The notes beneath the pieces were generated by a model. It was not told the DNA's origin. It saw only the letters and a program-made list of their open reading frames with translations, and did no database searches. DNA of 64,000 nt from Deltaproteobacteria bacterium. GTDB taxonomy: Bacteria > Desulfobacterota > Binatia > UBA9968. Of the stretch, positions 3,381 to 57,379 are shown piece after piece; position 1 is the stretch's first letter; every line of letters starts with the position of its first letter. The stretch lies in contig VGTH01000009.1 in NCBI GenBank assembly GCA_016874755.1, positions 4,933 to 68,932 on the forward strand, written 5' to 3'. The translations under genes and the position numbers were made by a program.

Positions 3381-4871
3381 ATGGGCCTGGAAAACCTACT
3401 ACTCGGCTTCCAGATCGCGATCACGCCGTACAATATTTTCGTGGCGGTCATGGGCATTCTGCTCGGCACCGTCATCGGTGTTTTGCCGGGCCTGGGCGGC
3501 GCCAATGGCGTGGCGATACTTTTGCCCGTGACCTTCGCCATGCCGCCGACTTCGGGAATCATTCTGCTAACCTCGATCTACTGGGGTGCCCTCTTCGGCG
3601 GCGCCATCACCTCGGTGCTTTTTAACATTCCCGGCGAGCCCTGGTCGGTGGCGACAACGTTCGACGGCTACCCGATGGCGCGCCAGGGCTTGGGTGGCCA
3701 GGCGCTCACAGCGGCGTTTACGTCGTCATTCATTGGCGCGTTGTTTTCGATTCTCCTCATCACCTTTTTCGCGCCGCTTTTGGCCGAAGTTGCGCTCAAA
3801 TTCGGCCCGGCGGAATTTTTCGCCATACAACTTCTCACCTTCTCCAGTTTCGTCGGCCTCGGCGGCAGCAATCCGCTCAAGTCACTGGTTTCAATCTTGA
3901 TCGGCTTTATCCTCGCCGCGGTGGGGTTGGATATTGTCACCGGCCAATTGCGCTTGACCTTTGGTTTCACCGGCTTGATGAAAGGGTTCGATTTTATCAT
4001 CGCCGTCATCGGCCTGTTCGGCATCGGCGAAATTCTTTTGAGCGTCGAAGAAGGCTTGAGCTTCAAAGGCACCAAGACCGGCATGAACTTGCGGGTTGTC
4101 TTCGACACCTGGAAAGAGCTGCCAGGCTACTGGCGCACCTTTCTGCGCAGCTCCTTCATCGGGTTTTGGATGGGCTTCAAACCGGGCGGCGCAACGCCGG
4201 CGTCGTTCATGAGCTACGCCTTCGCCAAACGCTTTTCCAAAAACAGCGCCAACTTCGGCAAGGGTGAGATCGAGGGCGTAGTTGCGCCGGAGACTGCGGC
4301 ACACTCGGCTGGCATCGCAGCGATGTTGCCGATGATTACCCTGGGCATTCCCGGCTCGCCCACGGCCGCGGTGATGCTCGGCGGTCTGATCATCTGGGGT
4401 TTGCAGCCCGGCCCCATGTTGTTCACCGAAAAACCGGACTTCGTCTGGGGCCTGATCGCCAGCATGTATACCGGCAACATCATTGGCGTCTTGATGGTGC
4501 TGGCGTTTGTGCCGCTCTTTGCGGCCATCCTGCGCATTCCATTTGCGATCTTGACGCCGCTGATCGTGATCGTCTGCGCCATCGGCGCCTACGCGGTCAA
4601 CGGCCGCATGCTCGACGTTTGGTATATGCTGGGGTTCGGCGTTATCGGCTACGTCTTCAAGAAACTCGACTATCCAATCGCGCCGCTCGTGCTGGCGCTG
4701 GTGCTTGGCGATTTGGCTGAGAGCGCCTTGCGTCAGAGCTTGATCATCTCACAAGGCTCATTGGCAATATTCTTCACCCGCCCCATAGCCGGAGCGATCA
4801 CCGCGGCGGCCATATTCTTTTTCGTCATGCCGCTGCTGGGCCCCTGGTGGAAGCGGTTCAAAGAACGCTGA
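3381..4871 (+). CDS. tctA: Tripartite tricarboxylate transporter permease TctA
   Basis: 496-aa polytopic membrane protein with TctA-family motifs (GVLPGLGGANGVAILLPVTF, MLPMITLGIPGSPTAAVMLGGL). Confidence 0.9.
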   Translation: MGLENLLLGFQIAITPYNIFVAVMGILLGTVIGVLPGLGGANGVAILLPVTFAMPPTSGIILLTSIYWGALFGGAITSVLFNIPGEPWSVATTFDGYPMARQGLGGQALTAAFTSSFIGALFSILLITFFAPLLAEVALKFGPAEFFAIQLLTFSSFVGLGGSNPLKSLVSILIGFILAAVGLDIVTGQLRLTFGFTGLMKGFDFIIAVIGLFGIGEILLSVEEGLSFKGTKTGMNLRVVFDTWKELPGYWRTFLRSSFIGFWMGFKPGGATPASFMSYAFAKRFSKNSANFGKGEIEGVVAPETAAHSAGIAAMLPMITLGIPGSPTAAVMLGGLIIWGLQPGPMLFTEKPDFVWGLIASMYTGNIIGVLMVLAFVPLFAAILRIPFAILTPLIVIVCAIGAYAVNGRMLDVWYMLGFGVIGYVFKKLDYPIAPLVLALVLGDLAESALRQSLIISQGSLAIFFTRPIAGAITAAAIFFFVMPLLGPWWKRFKER

Positions 4872-14286: not shown

Positions 14287-15801
14287 TCATTTCTGTGGCT
14301 TGAGTGCCAAGAACAGCGTGCTCTCACCCCGGCGAACCAAGAAGAGCACTCCGCGTCCTTTGCGAATGGTTGCCACCGATTTCTTGTATTCATCGACGCT
14401 GCGCACCGCCTTGCGGTCGATCTCAAGGATAACGTCGCCGCGCCGAATGCCGGCTTCGTCGGCGGCGCTCCCGGGCTCGACCTGAGTCACGACGACGCCT
14501 TCGGTCTTTTCCAGGCCCAAGCTCTCCGCCACCTGTGGCGTCAAGCGCTGCACCGTCATACCCAACTCGCCTTTTTCCGGGGCCGAGGCGACAACTTCTT
14601 CCTCTTTGAGCTCACCCACCGCAACGTTGAGGATCACTTCTTTCTTGTCGCGTAGCACCTTCATGCGGACTTTTTTCTCCACCGCCGTGCGCGCCACGAT
14701 GATCGGCAGCTCGGATGAGTCTTTGACTTCCTTGCCGTCGAATTCGACAATGACGTCGCCAACCTTGACGCCGGCTTTCTCCGCCGGCCCATCCTTGGAA
14801 ACATTGGCCACCAGCGCGCCGTAGCCGCGCTCCATGCCCAGGCTGTCGGCGATTTCGGGCGTGACTTTCTGAATTAGCACGCCCAGATAACCGCGCGTCA
14901 CTTTGCCTTTGCCACGCAGCTGCGGCAGGAGTTCTTTCACCAGATTGACTGGGATAGCAAAGCCAATCCCGATGTTGCCGCCGCTGCGCGTAAAGATCGC
15001 CGTGTTGATGCCAACCACTTCGCCGCGCAAGTTGATCAAGGGCCCGCCGGAATTGCCCGGGTTGATCGATGCATCGGTCTGGATAAAATTATCATAGGGC
15101 CCAGCGTTAATGTGCCGCCCCTTCGCGCTGACGATGCCTGAGGTCACGGTGCTGTCGAGACCAAACGGGTTGCCGATCGCCACGACCCATTCGCCGACTT
15201 CAAGTTTATCGGAGTCGCCCAATACAGCCACGGGCAAGGAGGTCTTGGCTTCGATCTTGATCACGGCGATGTCGGTCTTGGGGTCACGGCCCACCACCTT
15301 GGCCTCATGCTCGCTGTCGTCGGACAGCTTGACGACGATCTTTTGGGCATTTTCGACAACGTGATTATTAGTAAGAATGGAGCCGTCGCGATCGATGATA
15401 AAGCCCGAACCCGAACTGCGCTGGCGCTGCGGTCCGCGCGATCCGGGCCCGCCCGGCCCGCCGGGTCCACCAAAAAAGCGCCGCCAAAAATCATTGAACG
15501 GATCTTCTTCACCGAACGGGCTGCCAAAGTCCTGTCCGCCACCGCCGCGGCCTTCGCTCACAGCGGTGGTCGAGATATTGACAACCAGCGGCTTCATCCG
15601 TTTGGCCAGCGAAACGAAATCGGGTAGCCCGCCACGAACTTCTGGCGTTGCCGCCTCGCCCATGAGGTTGGCCCGGGTCGGCGCCAACCAGTCCAAGCTA
15701 CCGCTAATGCCCAGGCCAATGGCCAAAGAAACCAATGCCACCAACACCACCGCTTTGGTGCTAAAGTTCTCACTCCACAGGTTTTTCAAGTTCATCGACA
15801 C
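14287..15801 (-). CDS. degP: Periplasmic serine endoprotease DegP/HtrA (Do family, two PDZ domains)
   Basis: Catalytic triad region with GNSGGPLIN, two C-terminal PDZ-like segments; unusual Gly/Pro-rich insert FFGGPGGPGGPGSRGP. Confidence 0.9.
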   Translation of the reverse strand: MSMNLKNLWSENFSTKAVVLVALVSLAIGLGISGSLDWLAPTRANLMGEAATPEVRGGLPDFVSLAKRMKPLVVNISTTAVSEGRGGGGQDFGSPFGEEDPFNDFWRRFFGGPGGPGGPGSRGPQRQRSSGSGFIIDRDGSILTNNHVVENAQKIVVKLSDDSEHEAKVVGRDPKTDIAVIKIEAKTSLPVAVLGDSDKLEVGEWVVAIGNPFGLDSTVTSGIVSAKGRHINAGPYDNFIQTDASINPGNSGGPLINLRGEVVGINTAIFTRSGGNIGIGFAIPVNLVKELLPQLRGKGKVTRGYLGVLIQKVTPEIADSLGMERGYGALVANVSKDGPAEKAGVKVGDVIVEFDGKEVKDSSELPIIVARTAVEKKVRMKVLRDKKEVILNVAVGELKEEEVVASAPEKGELGMTVQRLTPQVAESLGLEKTEGVVVTQVEPGSAADEAGIRRGDVILEIDRKAVRSVDEYKKSVATIRKGRGVLFLVRRGESTLFLALKPQK

Positions 15802-52972: not shown

Positions 52973-53151
52973 TTTCTCCTCTCGCATTCGGTTAGTGAGC
53001 GCGCACAAAGTCATGCCGCTCATGCCAGTAATCACTGCCAACGTGCACTTACTTCACACGGACGCGTCGTTGCCGCGAAGCACTGAGCAAGAGCGTTGCC
53101 AACCGATGGGATACTGGAAGGAAAACTACAACTGCTTGATTTAGCGAGACT

Positions 53152-54756
53152 ATGCGTGCAGTAGCGGAGGTAAAGTGTATTCGCTTTTCTATTTCTGCAG
53201 CCTTGGTTTACGTTGCTGACAACAATGAAGCCGCAACGGAGTCAACGATTGCGAAACAAGCTGTTTCACTATTTGTGAGGCAAGGTTTTCGCCCAAGCAT
53301 CAGTTGGCGCAGCTCGCGGGCGACCGGCTGTTTGAATGCGACTTTCTATGCGTCGGAAAGCGAGCAACTAGACAGGGTTCTAGGTTTGAGCAACGGGCTC
53401 GATCCCGAGTTCGTCGCCAAGACCGCGGTCTATTGCCGCGAGCAAAGCCTCATGAAGGACATGCCGGCGCTGTTGTGCGCGTCGTTGTCGACTCGCGACA
53501 CTGAGTTGATGCAGGCAACCTTCGTTCGTGTCATCGACAACGGCAAGATGCTGCGCAACCTCGTGCAGATCCTGCGCTCTGGCGCCGTCGGTCGGAAGTC
53601 TTTGGGCACGGCGCCTAAGCGTCTGGTGCAAAGCTGGTTCGACCGTCAAGATGAGAGCGACTTGTTCCGCGCCGCCATCGGGCAGGATCCGTCCATCGAA
53701 GATGTGATCAAGATGGTGCATCCGAAGCCGAAGACTGAGGAGCAGGAAGCTCTGTACGGCTACCTGTTGGGGCGTTCGCACGATGCTGAGTCGCTGCCGG
53801 CTGTAGTTCGTGCGTGCGAGGCTTTCAAGGCGGGTGATACCACCGAGGTTCCCGACGTGCCGTTTATGAAGTTGACCGCGGTGGACTTGAGCGATTTGGC
53901 TTGGAAGAAAATCGCTGAGCGCGCTTCATGGCAGACCACCCGCATGAACTTGAACACCTTTGCTCGCCACGGCGTATTTGCCGATGCGGCTTTGGTGGAA
54001 AGGATCGCGGCGCGCTTGCGCGATCCGAAAGCGATCCGCAAGGCGCGGGCATTTCCGTATCAGTTGATGGTGGCCTACACCACGGCCGATGCAGCAATTC
54101 CTGGAGCGATCCCCGAGGCGTTGCAGGACGCCATGGAAGTGGCGATCGCAAACGTGCCCTGCTTCGCCGGCAAGGTCTACGTCTGCCCGGATGTGTCGGG
54201 TTTGATGTCGAGCGCGATCACCGGCTACCGCAAGGGTGCAACCAGCGCCGTGCGGGCGATCGATGTCGCGGCGCTGGTCGCCGCCGCGGTGGTGCGCAAG
54301 AATCCGTCGGCGGCGGTCTTGCCCTTTGAGCAGGACGTCGTGCCGTTGGCGCTCAACCCGCGCGATAGCGTGATAACCAATGCGGCCAAGCTCGCTGCCA
54401 TCGGCGGCGGTGGGACCAACTGCAGCGCGCCGTTGGCGCAGTTGAACGAGCGCAAAGCCAAAGGTGATCTGGTGATCTTCGTCTCCGATAACGAGGCGTG
54501 GATCGACGCAGGCCATGGCCGCGGCACAGCAACGATGGCCGAGTGGCAGCGCTTCAAGGCGCGCAACCCGGCGGCAAAGTTGGTCTGCATCGACTTGCAG
54601 CCGTACGCCACGACCCAAGCGCAGGAGCGCGCAGATATTTTGAATATCGGCGGCGGCTTCTCGGATGCGGTATTCGACGTGATCGCGCGCTTTGCGCAAG
54701 GTTCACTGAACGCCGATCATTGGGTCGGTGAGATCGAAGCCGTGAGTTTGAATTAA
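53152..54756 (+). CDS. rsr: Ro60-related protein Rsr (TROVE domain + C-terminal vWA/MIDAS)
   Basis: 534 aa; TROVE core (...LVQSWFDRQDESDLFRAAIGQDPSIEDVIKMVHPKP...), vWA with DVSGLMSS MIDAS motif; Deinococcus-Rsr-like length. Confidence 0.85.
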   Translation: MRAVAEVKCIRFSISAALVYVADNNEAATESTIAKQAVSLFVRQGFRPSISWRSSRATGCLNATFYASESEQLDRVLGLSNGLDPEFVAKTAVYCREQSLMKDMPALLCASLSTRDTELMQATFVRVIDNGKMLRNLVQILRSGAVGRKSLGTAPKRLVQSWFDRQDESDLFRAAIGQDPSIEDVIKMVHPKPKTEEQEALYGYLLGRSHDAESLPAVVRACEAFKAGDTTEVPDVPFMKLTAVDLSDLAWKKIAERASWQTTRMNLNTFARHGVFADAALVERIAARLRDPKAIRKARAFPYQLMVAYTTADAAIPGAIPEALQDAMEVAIANVPCFAGKVYVCPDVSGLMSSAITGYRKGATSAVRAIDVAALVAAAVVRKNPSAAVLPFEQDVVPLALNPRDSVITNAAKLAAIGGGGTNCSAPLAQLNERKAKGDLVIFVSDNEAWIDAGHGRGTATMAEWQRFKARNPAAKLVCIDLQPYATTQAQERADILNIGGGFSDAVFDVIARFAQGSLNADHWVGEIEAVSLN

Positions 54757-54767
54757 CTTTAACCGGG

Positions 54768-54827
54768 GCTGAATGCAGTCGAAACTACATTTGCGACATG
54801 TTCTGTCTCGACGACAAACTTGTCAGC
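54768..54827 (+). ncRNA. Short Y-RNA-like element (stem only, no tRNA-like insert), 12 nt after rsr stop
   Basis: GCUGA-AUGCA-GUCGA...UCGAC-GACAAACUUG-UCAGC: same two-helix / asymmetric-loop architecture as the two downstream elements with compensatory helix changes. Confidence 0.4.
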
Positions 54828-54840
54828 TCCGATAAACCCA

Positions 54841-54875
54841 GGGCGACCCACCGGTCGCCCCCACGAAAATCGTGG
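54841..54875. repeat. REP-like palindrome GGGCGACCcaccGGTCGCCC plus adjacent CCACGAaaaTCGTGG hairpin
   Basis: Same palindrome family as 26670-26689, 40491-40510, 50827-50846 and (reverse orientation, compensatory G>A/C>T) 54953-54973. Confidence 0.6.
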
Positions 54876-54988
54876 CGCCGAATGCTGTTGGGATTACATC
54901 ACAACCCTAGTACGGATGTCTCAACAAAAACTTGTCGGCCCAGAAACTTGTAGGGGCAACCGGCGGGTTGCCCTCAGGGATGCACGTA

Positions 54989-55096
54989 GCGAATGCCGAA
55001 GATAACTACATGGGTCGCGGGTTCGACTCCCCCTGGCTCCGTCAAACGGGCCATAGCTCAGCGGGAGAGCAATGTTTCCTTCAACAATTTGTCGCC
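54989..55096 (+). ncRNA. yrlA: YrlA-like Y RNA with circularly permuted tRNA-mimic domain
   Basis: T-arm GCGGG-UUCGACU-CCCCC (55017-55033), loop-closed acceptor-like stem UGGCUCC/GGGCCA, UA, D-arm GCUC-AGCGGGA-GAGC (55056-55070), 5-nt variable loop GGGUC, flanking ACAU/AUGU helix and GCGA..GAAG / CUUC..UCGC outer stem; lies between rsr and rtcB. Confidence 0.65.
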
Positions 55097-55150
55097 ACTA
55101 AATGCGGTTAGAAAGAATGGTGCGAAAAGCGATAGAATATTGAAACTAGC

Positions 55151-55270
55151 GGCGAATGCCGAAGCAACTGCATGGCCTCGCGGGTCTTCGGGTGCAAGTC
55201 CTGAAGCGCAGTCAACTGCGCTAGCTCAGGACAGAGCAACGAGAAAACGCTTCTTCAAGAACTTGTCGCC
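55151..55270 (+). ncRNA. Second, more degenerate Y-RNA-like element with tRNA-like D-arm and extended T-arm analogue
   Basis: Same termini as element 1 (GGCGAAUGCCGAAG ... CUUCAAGAACUUGUCGCC), D-arm GCUC-AGGACA-GAGC preceded by UA and loop-closed helix CGCAG-ucaa-CUGCG, 7-bp stem CUUCGGG-UGCAAGU-CCUGAAG. Confidence 0.5.
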
Positions 55271-55285
55271 GCCCGTGGGGGAAAT

Positions 55286-56514
55286 ATGTCAGAGAGCAAC
55301 TACAACCTGATTCAGCCAGAGAATGGCGTGCCCATCAAGGCCTGGACCAAGGGCGTCGCCATTGAAGGTTCAGCGGAGAAGCAGCTGCGCAACGTCGCGA
55401 CCATGCCGTTCGTCTACAAATGGGTGGCGGCGATGCCGGACGTGCATTGGGGCATCGGCGCTACTGTAGGGAGTGTGATCCCCACCAAAGGCGCGATCAT
55501 CCCAGCCGCCGTCGGCGTCGATATCGGCTGCGGCATGATGGCGGTGCGAACAACGTTGAACGCCAGCCAACTGCCAGACAACCTGCGCAGCGTGCGCTCG
55601 GCAATTGAAAAGGCGTGCCGCACGGACGCACCAACAACGGGCGCAAGGGCGACCGCGGCGCGTGGGGCGAAATCCCCAAGCGCCAGATCGGCGTGTGGCG
55701 CCAGCTCGAGATGGGCTACAAAGCGATCACGGAAAAGTATCCAAACTTAGATCGCGGCAATGATGTGAATCACTTGGGCACCCTCGGCACCGGCAACCAC
55801 TTCATCGAAGTGTGCCTGGACGAAAGTGACCGGGTTTGGTTCATGCTCCATAGCGGGTCACGCGGCGTCGGCAATCGCATCGGGACCTTTTTCATCGATC
55901 TGGCGCGCAACGATATGCGCAAGCATATCGCGAATCTGCCGGATCGCGACCTCGCTTACTTCGAAGAAGGCAGCGAGCACTTCGAAGACTATGTGGATGC
56001 CGTGCACTGGGCGCAGGAGTTTGCCATGTACAACCGTAAACTGATGATGGAGCAGCTGGTCGAAGCGGTGGAAAATTGCCGCGAGCTGCCGGAGTTTTCA
56101 CTGACTGAAACGGCGGTGAATTGCCATCATAACTACGTCGCCCGCGAAGAGCACTACGGCCATGCCGTGTTCGTCACCCGCAAAGGCGCGGTGCGCGCCG
56201 GCAAGGGCGACATGGGGATTATCCCCGGCAGCATGGGGGCGCGCTCGTACATCGTGCGCGGCCTCGGCAATCTCGAGAGCTTCGAAAGCTGCAGCCACGG
56301 CGCCGGCCGCGCCATGTCGCGCAACGAAGCCAAGCGCCGTTTTACGATTGACGATCACATCAAAGCCACTGCTGGCGTCGAATGCCGAAAAGACGCCAAT
56401 GTTATCGACGAAACCCCAATGGCGTACAAGAACATCGACGATGTCATGAACGCGCAGAAGGATTTAGTCGAGATTGCGCATACGCTGCGGCAGGTGGTGT
56501 GTGTGAAAGGATAG
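55286..56514 (+). pseudogene. rtcB: RNA-splicing ligase RtcB, reading frame broken by 1-nt deletion near 55612 (or sequencing error)
   Basis: ORFs 55286-55750 and 55615-56514 together give a full-length RtcB (..AIEKA|VPHGRTNNGRKGDRGAWGE.., HLGTLGTGNHFIEVCLDE.., SCSHGAGR..); expected GCG GTG CCG is GCG TGC CGC. Confidence 0.8.
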
Positions 56515-56606
56515 GCTTGAGGCGCGAGTTGAAAGGATGAAAGATGAAAGCGGAAGTATGAAAGAAGAGTTCGGACAATTCCACCTTCATAATTCCGCTT
56601 TCATAA

Positions 56607-57379
<773 letters not shown>

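Follow-up and report, generated by a model that had tools for sequence, protein, structure and literature searches.

What fills the 529-nt spacer between rsr and rtcB, and could it supply RNA partners for the Ro60-like protein encoded beside it? We address this question in a 64-kb stretch of contig VGTH01000009.1 from an uncultured deltaproteobacterium, referred to here as the window. On the + strand, this spacer very probably carries four tandem bacterial Y RNA genes (A, B, C and D) whose products would serve as Rsr-binding adaptors: two short hairpins (A and B) and two tRNA mimics (C and D). This kind of RNA and the layout of the operon are already known; the locus itself was unannotated until now. 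The first-pass annotation of the spacer had described three tandem elements with one stem architecture. All three are real (its elements 0, 1 and 2 are our A, C and D), but the count is four, since B (54874-54942) had been overlooked.

A common stem beneath variable tops

In each element, the 5′ and 3′ ends close into a two-helix stem around an asymmetric internal loop (Table 1). The 5′ strand reads ..CGA-AUGC-N, while the A-rich 3′ strand ends in ..(C/U)UUG-UC..; in A, C and D the 3′ loops are 9-10 nt long and terminate in UUG. The helices and loops listed for these three elements in the first-pass annotation were reproduced base for base. By analogy with characterized Y RNAs, this two-helix stem with its internal loop is the predicted Ro60/Rsr-binding module. 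The motif bound by Ro60 and Rsr, GNCGAAN0-1G (PMC4201824), lies on the 5′ strand of the end-pairing stem, where it is exact in D (GGCGAAUG) and B (GCCGAAUG). The first G is replaced by A in C (AGCGAAUG), and in A (GCUGAAUG) the C has become U, with a compensating A on the 3′ strand. We judge all of these to be end-pairing stems that carry the motif, and their pairing is backed by the covariation described below.

The tops of the stems differ. A and B end in a small hairpin (ACAU/AUGU in A) and contain no tRNA-like module of any kind, and are thus not of the YrlA type. Their hairpin-type structure is seen in minimum free energy (MFE) folds and in model alignments, and is common to 48 covarying homologues; the MFE fold of B matches the shared architecture. 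C carries a circularly permuted tRNA mimic, and D a variant of it with the T-loop UGCAA and a D-loop that lacks GG. In both, a T stem–loop is followed by an acceptor-like stem–loop, UA and a D stem–loop, the T/AS/D order described for YrlA (PMC4201824). The likening of hairpin and tRNA-like elements to a YrlB and YrlA pair therefore holds: the Rfam YrlA model aligns to C over its full length, and our covariance models recover both short and long types. The 7-bp T-arm analogue and the D-arm reported for the last element are also present.

Covariation across related rsr loci

Relatives of the window were collected by an Rsr protein search with one genome per species, giving 80 loci that are 60-76% identical and come mostly from Acidobacteriota metagenome-assembled genomes. 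From these relatives only, with the window excluded, we built a short-type covariance model (R1) and a tRNA-like one (R2). Across both strands of the window (128 kb), R2 returns exactly four matches with E<=10 (E 6e-18 to 8e-8), scoring 71.5 bits for C (E=6e-18), 69.2 bits for D (E=3e-17), 38.6 bits for B and 35.3 bits for A. B is the top match to R1 in the window (52.7 bits, E=2e-14), and A reaches 49.8 bits (E=1.8e-13); with filters off, R1 loses the long elements owing to the window length of the model. A weak R1 match at 14439-14466 (+), a GCCGAAUGCCG...GUCGGC mini-hairpin (15.5 bits, E=0.02), is probably due to chance. A motif scan (helix + ATGC ... [CT]TTG + complementary helix) finds just these four elements in the spacer, with scattered chance matches elsewhere, and a repeat finder groups the 3′ strands of all four as one family.

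The elements are tied to one strand of the related loci. R1 gives 236 matches with E<=0.01 on the rsr strand of the 80 loci and 0 on the other, an exclusive association that is directly observed. Sequence-only anchors (GAATGC ... TTGTC) yield 346 pairs on the rsr strand versus 17 on the opposite one, and the outer-helix positions outside these anchors, which played no part in selection, are paired in 90-92% of elements. The two loci closest to the window, L001 and L002, contain four elements in the same order. Between these loci and the window the elements are 46-77% identical (70-73% for A), whereas the spacers are 23-33% identical, which is the random level. Compensatory changes separate the orthologues in the outer helix of A (U-A to C-G) and in the T stem of C (C-G to G-C). 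At the position orthologous to B, L001 and L002 have a longer element (~85-95 nt) with a T-arm.

Covariation is directly visible over roughly 100 homologues. For the short type (48 sequences, window excluded), 95.1% of the cells in the outer and inner helices are paired, compared with 34-54% when the strands are slid; 170 cells show double changes against 54.6 in shuffles, and 11 of 15 pairs are compensatory. The tRNA-like type (49 sequences, five helices) behaves alike, with 94.9% of cells paired versus 37-52% slid, 285 double-change cells against 86.8 in shuffles, and compensatory changes in 22 of 32 pairs spanning the outer, inner, T and acceptor-like helices. For neither type do any of the 500 shuffles reach the observed value, so the statistical covariation check proposed in the first-pass annotation is strongly positive. 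The five helices of the tRNA-like alignment were set by hand after eight short candidates had been removed by eye, and the way in which our alignments were built fixes the GA/UC closing pair and the loop anchors. The D stem of the tRNA-like type is invariant, as reported for YrlA (10.1101/312249). Compensatory helix changes, which had been claimed from the window, are thus strong across related loci but few within the window alone. Together with the rsr/rtcBA context and the models built from relatives, the covariation supports the earlier proposal of structured RNAs beside rsr whose conserved stem and loop are recognized by protein.

The operon and rival explanations

A–D occupy the + strand, as does rsr, and fall between 9 and 517 nt past the rsr stop codon, well inside the ~4 kb from rsr within which bacterial Y RNAs of the YrlA type are encoded. 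The directly observed order rsr, Y RNAs, rtcB and rtcA on one strand is that of an RNA repair operon. The rsr product matches the Pfam families vWA_Ro60 (8e-16) and TROVE (5e-6), and in the PDB it matches Deinococcus radiodurans Rsr (2NVO) and, across its full length, Thermus phage phiLo Ro60 (9KOP/9L5Y). The upstream neighbours of rsr are a 142-aa open reading frame (ORF) that matches no Pfam family and a MetE-like gene. A scan for intrinsic terminators on the + strand from rsr to rtcA found none, and scans for sigma-54 and sigma-70 promoters gave nothing exceeding chance. A sigma-54-like TGGCAA-N5-TTGCT with one mismatch at 53086-53101 (- strand) is directed away from rsr, occurs at chance frequency and is probably fortuitous.

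Table 1 Features of the rsr–rtcBA locus (positions in the window; helices as 5′ strand/3′ strand).
Feature	Positions	Strand	Parts	Basis or remark
rsr (Ro60/TROVE + vWA)	53152..54756	+		presumed protein partner of the Y RNAs; 5′ end disrupted relative to homologues
Y RNA A, short hairpin type	54765..54830	+	outer helix 54765-72/54823-30, including GCUGA 54768-72 / UCAGC 54823-27; 5′ loop AUGCA 54773-77; inner helix 54778-85/54805-12 (one A.C mismatch), including GUCGA 54778-82 / UCGAC 54808-12; 3′ loop GACAAACUUG 54813-22	R1, R2, Rfam YrlA local alignment, orthology
Two G+C-rich hairpins, spacer 1	54841..54876	+	GGGCGACC-CACC-GGUCGCCC, then CCACGA-AAA-UCGUGG	
Y RNA B, short hairpin type	54874..54942	+	strands GCCGA AUGCU GUUGGGA ... 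UCUCAAC AAAAACUUG UCGGC; outer helix 54877-81/54935-39 (extendable); AUGC(U) 54882-86; inner helix 54886-93/54919-26; apical helix 54897-900/54915-18; 3′ loop AAAACUUG 54927-34	R1, R2, MFE fold
G+C-rich hairpin, spacer 2	54954..54973	+	GGGCAACC-GGCG-GGUUGCCC	
Y RNA C, YrlA type, canonical tRNA-like module	54985..55099	+	outer helix 54986-92/55092-98 (one A.C), including GCGA 54989-92 / UCGC 55092-95; AUGCC 54993-97; inner helix 54998-55006/55074-82, including GAAG 54998-55001 / CUUC 55079-82; T arm 55017-21/55029-33, loop UUCGACU (one C.C); acceptor-like stem 55034-40/55047-53; UA 55054-55; D arm 55056-59/55067-70; 3′ loop AACAAUUUG 55083-91	Rfam YrlA, R2, orthology
Y RNA D, YrlA type, variant subclass	55148..55273	+	outer helix 55149-55/55266-72, including GGCGA 55151-55 / UCGCC 55266-70; AUGCC 55156-60; inner helix 55161-68/55249-56, including GAAG 55161-64 / CUUC 55253-56; 7-bp T-like stem 55186-92/55200-06, loop UGCAAGU; acceptor-like stem 55207-11/55216-20; UA 55222-23; D arm 55224-27/55234-37, loop AGGACA; 3′ loop AAGAACUUG 55257-65	R2, Rfam YrlA, subclass alignment A3
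rtcB (RNA ligase)	55286..56514	+	two frames	Pfam RtcB on both ORFs; tblastn and DNA alignment against L002
rtcA (RNA 3′-phosphate cyclase)	56537..57379	+		Pfam RTC and RTC_insert; tblastn

The spacers between the Y RNA genes hold further structure. A GGGCRACC-N4-GGUYGCCC hairpin stands ~11 nt 3′ of each short element, with three matches in the window where 0.11 are expected, and the two spacer 1 hairpins fold at -24 kcal/mol (z=-5.8). These G+C-rich hairpins have no U tract, and hairpins after the short elements are not conserved among relatives. Directly 3′ of B, at 54941-54954, part of the Y 3′ strand is repeated a fifth time (CAGAAACUUGUAGG; CAGAAACTTGTAGG). This partial copy may be the scar of a rearrangement that shortened B relative to the ~85-95-nt version with a T-arm in L001 and L002.

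Several observations weigh against reading the spacer as an array of Y RNA genes in a working operon. A default (gathering-mode) Rfam scan of the window returns nothing. The YrlA model (RF02553) has a gathering score of 69 bits and every element falls below it, including the best, C; moreover, C lies ~20 bits below its own orthologues in L001 and L002, which exceed the gathering score (77.0 and 80.2 bits). In E-value mode the same model aligns over its full length to C (54986-55101, 56.8 bits, E=3.5e-12) and D (55149-55275, 33 bits, E=2.5e-5), and locally, over the stem only, to A at a lower score (54766-54832, 19.9 bits, E=0.16). As just 8 of roughly 80 elements in 20 related loci are detected at the gathering score, the Rfam cut-off is conservative for this clade. 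GAAUGC and UUGUC were used as anchors, which makes their invariance in our alignments partly circular. The conservation of the loop is nonetheless independent of those alignments, since both strands of the internal loop, AUGC at 5′ and A.A.U.G at 3′, are likewise highly conserved in the Rfam YrlA consensus, which comes from other phyla. Single-sequence folding gives z-scores of +0.1 to -3.3, unremarkable for A, B and C, and is not decisive; support for the elements is therefore drawn from comparison with related loci.

The regulatory and coding context adds to these points. No sigma-54 consensus was found upstream of rsr on the + strand, nor any rtcR; none of the scanned ORFs (upstream of 44000, 9 of the 19 ORFs of >=330 aa were covered) has a sigma-54 activator domain. 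The window thus differs from a Salmonella-type RNA repair operon with its divergent rtcR and sigma-54 promoter, and regulation is either unlike that of Salmonella or located elsewhere. All three protein genes are also disrupted. An extra nucleotide (+1) near 53318 shifts the frame of rsr; its similarity to homologues begins only at 53320, and the conserved motifs of the N terminus (..NKLF.., FSPKHxLAQ) are scattered across three frames, with a stop codon among them (53150-53330). A 1-nt deletion near 55613 splits rtcB over two frames, and the N-terminal part of rtcA (56613-56777) is in another frame, with ~78 residues missing relative to L002.

These disruptions bear on the alternative that survives best, in which the Y RNA genes are genuine but rsr, rtcB and rtcA are pseudogenes of a decaying relic whose RNAs have merely not yet eroded. 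The protein genes do look damaged here, and the system may no longer be working. About 15 other large genes of the window give full-length Pfam matches and look intact, which makes pervasive assembly error unlikely. The RNAs point partly the same way, with an A.C pair in the outer helix of C and a C.C in its T stem, a lower Rfam score of C than of its orthologues that fits relaxed selection, and the loss from B of the T-arm of its counterparts. However, the clade models still assign 50-70 bits to all four RNAs, whose helices have hardly any unpaired positions, rsr retains an open frame of 534 codons, and in a metagenome assembly single-base indels in G/C runs are possibly consensus errors or strain mixtures. 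We regard decay of the whole locus as a serious but rather unlikely account.

Much less credible is that the structures act in cis as an rtcB leader, for example an attenuator or a T-box-like tRNA sensor, and are not free-standing RNAs. The elements do immediately precede rtcB on its strand, no terminator separates them from it, and RtcB acts on tRNA, which two of them mimic. Among relatives, however, the arrays track rsr and not rtcB: Y elements occur in 70 of the 80 loci while rtcB is within reach in 30, and they are found in most of the 50 loci without rtcB in the fetched flank. They lie upstream of rsr, downstream of it or on both sides, in several loci embedded among tRNA genes, and in Salmonella, Mycobacterium and Deinococcus the homologues accumulate as separate RNAs bound to Rsr (PMC4201824). 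This distribution argues against a leader, which was already disfavoured and to which we attach very little weight.

Least probable of all, at the margin of what we would consider, is that degenerate tRNA genes or a tRNA-derived dispersed repeat landed here by chance: C and D do have T-arm-like and D-arm-like sequences and a transfer-messenger RNA (tmRNA) model matches weakly at 54953-55044 (12.9 bits, just the T-arm), but ARAGORN calls no tRNA or tmRNA in the whole window, Rfam in gathering mode gives no tRNA match, the arms follow a permuted order (T, closed acceptor-like stem, D) in place of the canonical cloverleaf and sit inside the predicted Rsr-binding stem, A and B have no tRNA-like part whatever, and no further copies exist on either strand of the 64 kb.

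Predicted adaptor function and the diversity of bacterial Y RNAs

With Y RNA genes as the preferred reading of the spacer, the closest counterpart is the rsr-yrlBA-rtcBA operon of Salmonella Typhimurium (PMC7790460). It has the same order of rsr, a hairpin-type Y RNA, a tRNA-like Y RNA, rtcB and rtcA, a stem with CGAA in the 5′ strand, and a permuted mimic built from a T arm, an acceptor-like stem, UA and a D arm. Salmonella differs in having two Y RNAs, whereas the window has four with two classes of tRNA mimic; it also differs in its rtcR and sigma-54 promoter, which were not found near the window rsr, and in that the window elements score below the Rfam gathering value. A and B resemble Salmonella YrlB in architecture. 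YrlA RNAs are characterized by binding to Rsr, by an accumulation that depends on it, and by TruB and DusA modification of the T and D loops. A crystal structure of the tRNA-like YrlA module is available (10.1101/312249).

Mycobacterium smegmatis (YrlA/YrlB) and D. radiodurans (Yrn1/Yrn2) likewise have at least two Y RNAs beside rsr, processed from one precursor, although in both species the Y genes are upstream of rsr. M. smegmatis YrlB keeps the T-arm alone, as does the second element of L001 and L002. The 7-bp acceptor stem of M. smegmatis YrlA is cut by RNase P, while the acceptor-like stems of the window are closed hairpins of 5-7 bp. Among solved structures, phiLo Ro60 gives the longest alignment with the window Rsr. 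Its ligands are two adjacent Y-like RNAs, Yrl1 and Yrl2, in which a stem-bulge-stem contains the CGAA motif, and it also enters a complex with PNPase (PMC12135203). In contrast to the window, this is a phage system with the RNAs upstream of the Ro60 gene and no tRNA-like module described.

Metazoan Y RNAs share paired ends that carry the Ro60 site and are read mainly on the 5′ strand, a variable effector loop, and two to four paralogues; they differ in being RNA polymerase III genes with a bulged-C helix (GGUCCGA) instead of CGAAUGC and no tRNA mimic. The T-loop and D-loop elbow elements and the T and D stems are also common to tRNA, the tRNA-like domain of tmRNA and viral tRNA-like structures. 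Compared with these, the window mimics are circularly permuted, have no free CCA end or anticodon loop, and are not called by ARAGORN.

By analogy with work on Salmonella, Deinococcus, Mycobacterium and phage phiLo (PMC4201824, PMC7790460, 10.1101/312249, PMC12135203), we infer that the most likely function of the four RNAs is that of Rsr-binding adaptors cut from the operon transcript (Table 1). The Y RNAs would be co-transcribed with rsr and rtcBA, with no terminator between them, and the individual RNAs would then be excised. Each would bind the outer surface of the Rsr ring through the CGAAUGC 5′ strand of its stem, and once bound would gate the central cavity of Rsr and tether Rsr to a partner. 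PNPase may be the partner of at least one Y RNA type; for the tRNA mimics it would be some factor that recognizes the tRNA elbow.

D may bear on the choice of partner. It had been described as more degenerate than the other elements, which is not the case. Its T-loop UGCAAGU in place of UUCGAnU, its 7-bp T stem and its AGGACA D-loop are common to the L001 and L002 orthologues, and such features recur in ~15 elements of other loci, including other phyla (among them L014:4925-5062, L047:4829-4969, L066:1919-2054 and L067:5281-5417), with compensatory changes in the T stem (alignment A3). D thus belongs to a conserved variant class and is not a decayed copy. RNAalifold on A3 recovers only the outer and T helices, the variable parts being misaligned by MAFFT, and the structure was then set by hand on a larger alignment, A4. 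The D-loop GG is missing from every one of the 15 elements that have G at T-loop position 55, compared with 49 of the 133 elements with U55 (GG is present in the other 84), counts that come from rough parsing and are uncorrected for phylogeny. In tRNA, the D-loop GG contacts positions 55/56. The combination of G55 and loss of the D-loop GG may be a tertiary co-variation at the elbow. Judged from its sequence, the elbow of the D class looks co-adapted, is predicted not to be pseudouridylatable by TruB, and may recruit a different partner.

The short elements may form a widely conserved family of their own, for which we use the name mini-Y, with the invariant core GA-AUGC...GACUACAU...GUC...UUGUC. 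It has more than 50 members, in Acidobacteriota, Verrucomicrobiota, Planctomycetota and others. Members usually come first after rsr; more than 30 relatives have a short element in that place. Rfam has no model for this family. Chen et al. counted 355 YrlAs in 276 genomes and found no detectable homologues of YrlB outside S. enterica (PMC4201824). Judged against that survey, this conserved short class may be undescribed.

Arrays of this sort are the norm in this Rsr clade: across the 80 loci, strict anchors give a mode of 3 Y elements per locus, at least 4 in 29 loci, and a maximum of 7. Up to seven or eight Y-like elements can be seen at single rsr loci (L044:4585-5519, L065:4584-5685, L059, L062, L052). 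A further Y-like class of ~110-130 nt combines the standard stem (GGGUGA...UCACCC) with a conserved GGAGnnnGAUAACUCC hairpin and has neither T nor D arm; it is absent from the window and occurs at L006:3413-3533, L012:4689-4820, L016:4645-4763, L042:2704-2833, L062:2699-2826, L066:2641-2768 and L074:2660-2787. At L062:4620-4731, a Y stem surrounds an insert (4639-4712) that scores 48.9 bits with the Rfam tRNA model and is called an odd tRNA by ARAGORN. This would be a Y RNA with a non-permuted tRNA-like body.

Many related arrays adjoin tRNA genes. In the 3 kb upstream of rsr (L003-L080), 39 of the 80 related loci have arrays of 5-26 tRNA genes that immediately precede rsr and extend past the fetched flank (examples are L008:84-2825, L014:5-2843 and L017:146-2820); the 454 tRNAs share the strand of rsr without exception. 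Neither the window nor its closest relatives have such arrays. At 17 loci or more, Y elements are flanked by tRNA genes, with spacers of 3-15 nt. Such loci include L062:1086-2826, L052:750-2790, L059:2061-2824, L040:500-900 and L045:1100-2820, with arrangements such as Cys-10-Y64-8-Y129-8-His and Lys-10-Met-3-Y131-4-Asn-7-Y116-8-Y128-rsr. The series Cys, short Y, long Y, His is found repeatedly. Such interleaving suggests co-transcription and processing together with tRNAs. In the literature library that was searched, no paper connects tRNA arrays with Rsr or Y RNAs.

Taken jointly, the mini-Y family, the second class of tRNA mimic and the embedding in tRNA arrays incline us, by a modest degree, to view the Y array as a set of distinct Rsr adaptors that catalogues have mostly missed. 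An rsr, fourfold Y RNA and rtcBA module that is invisible to a default Rfam scan has gained its correct annotation in an uncultured bacterium. The comparison suggests that the diversity of bacterial Y RNAs is under-catalogued: about one element in ten reaches the Rfam cut-off, and the three to seven Y RNAs found at most related rsr loci fall into at least four structural classes. If true, the embedding in arrays would tie the biology of Rsr and Y RNAs directly to the expression and processing of tRNA operons. Two classes of mimic side by side, and Y genes within tRNA arrays, offer handles on how one Ro60 ring works with several adaptors and on the role of the tRNA mimic.

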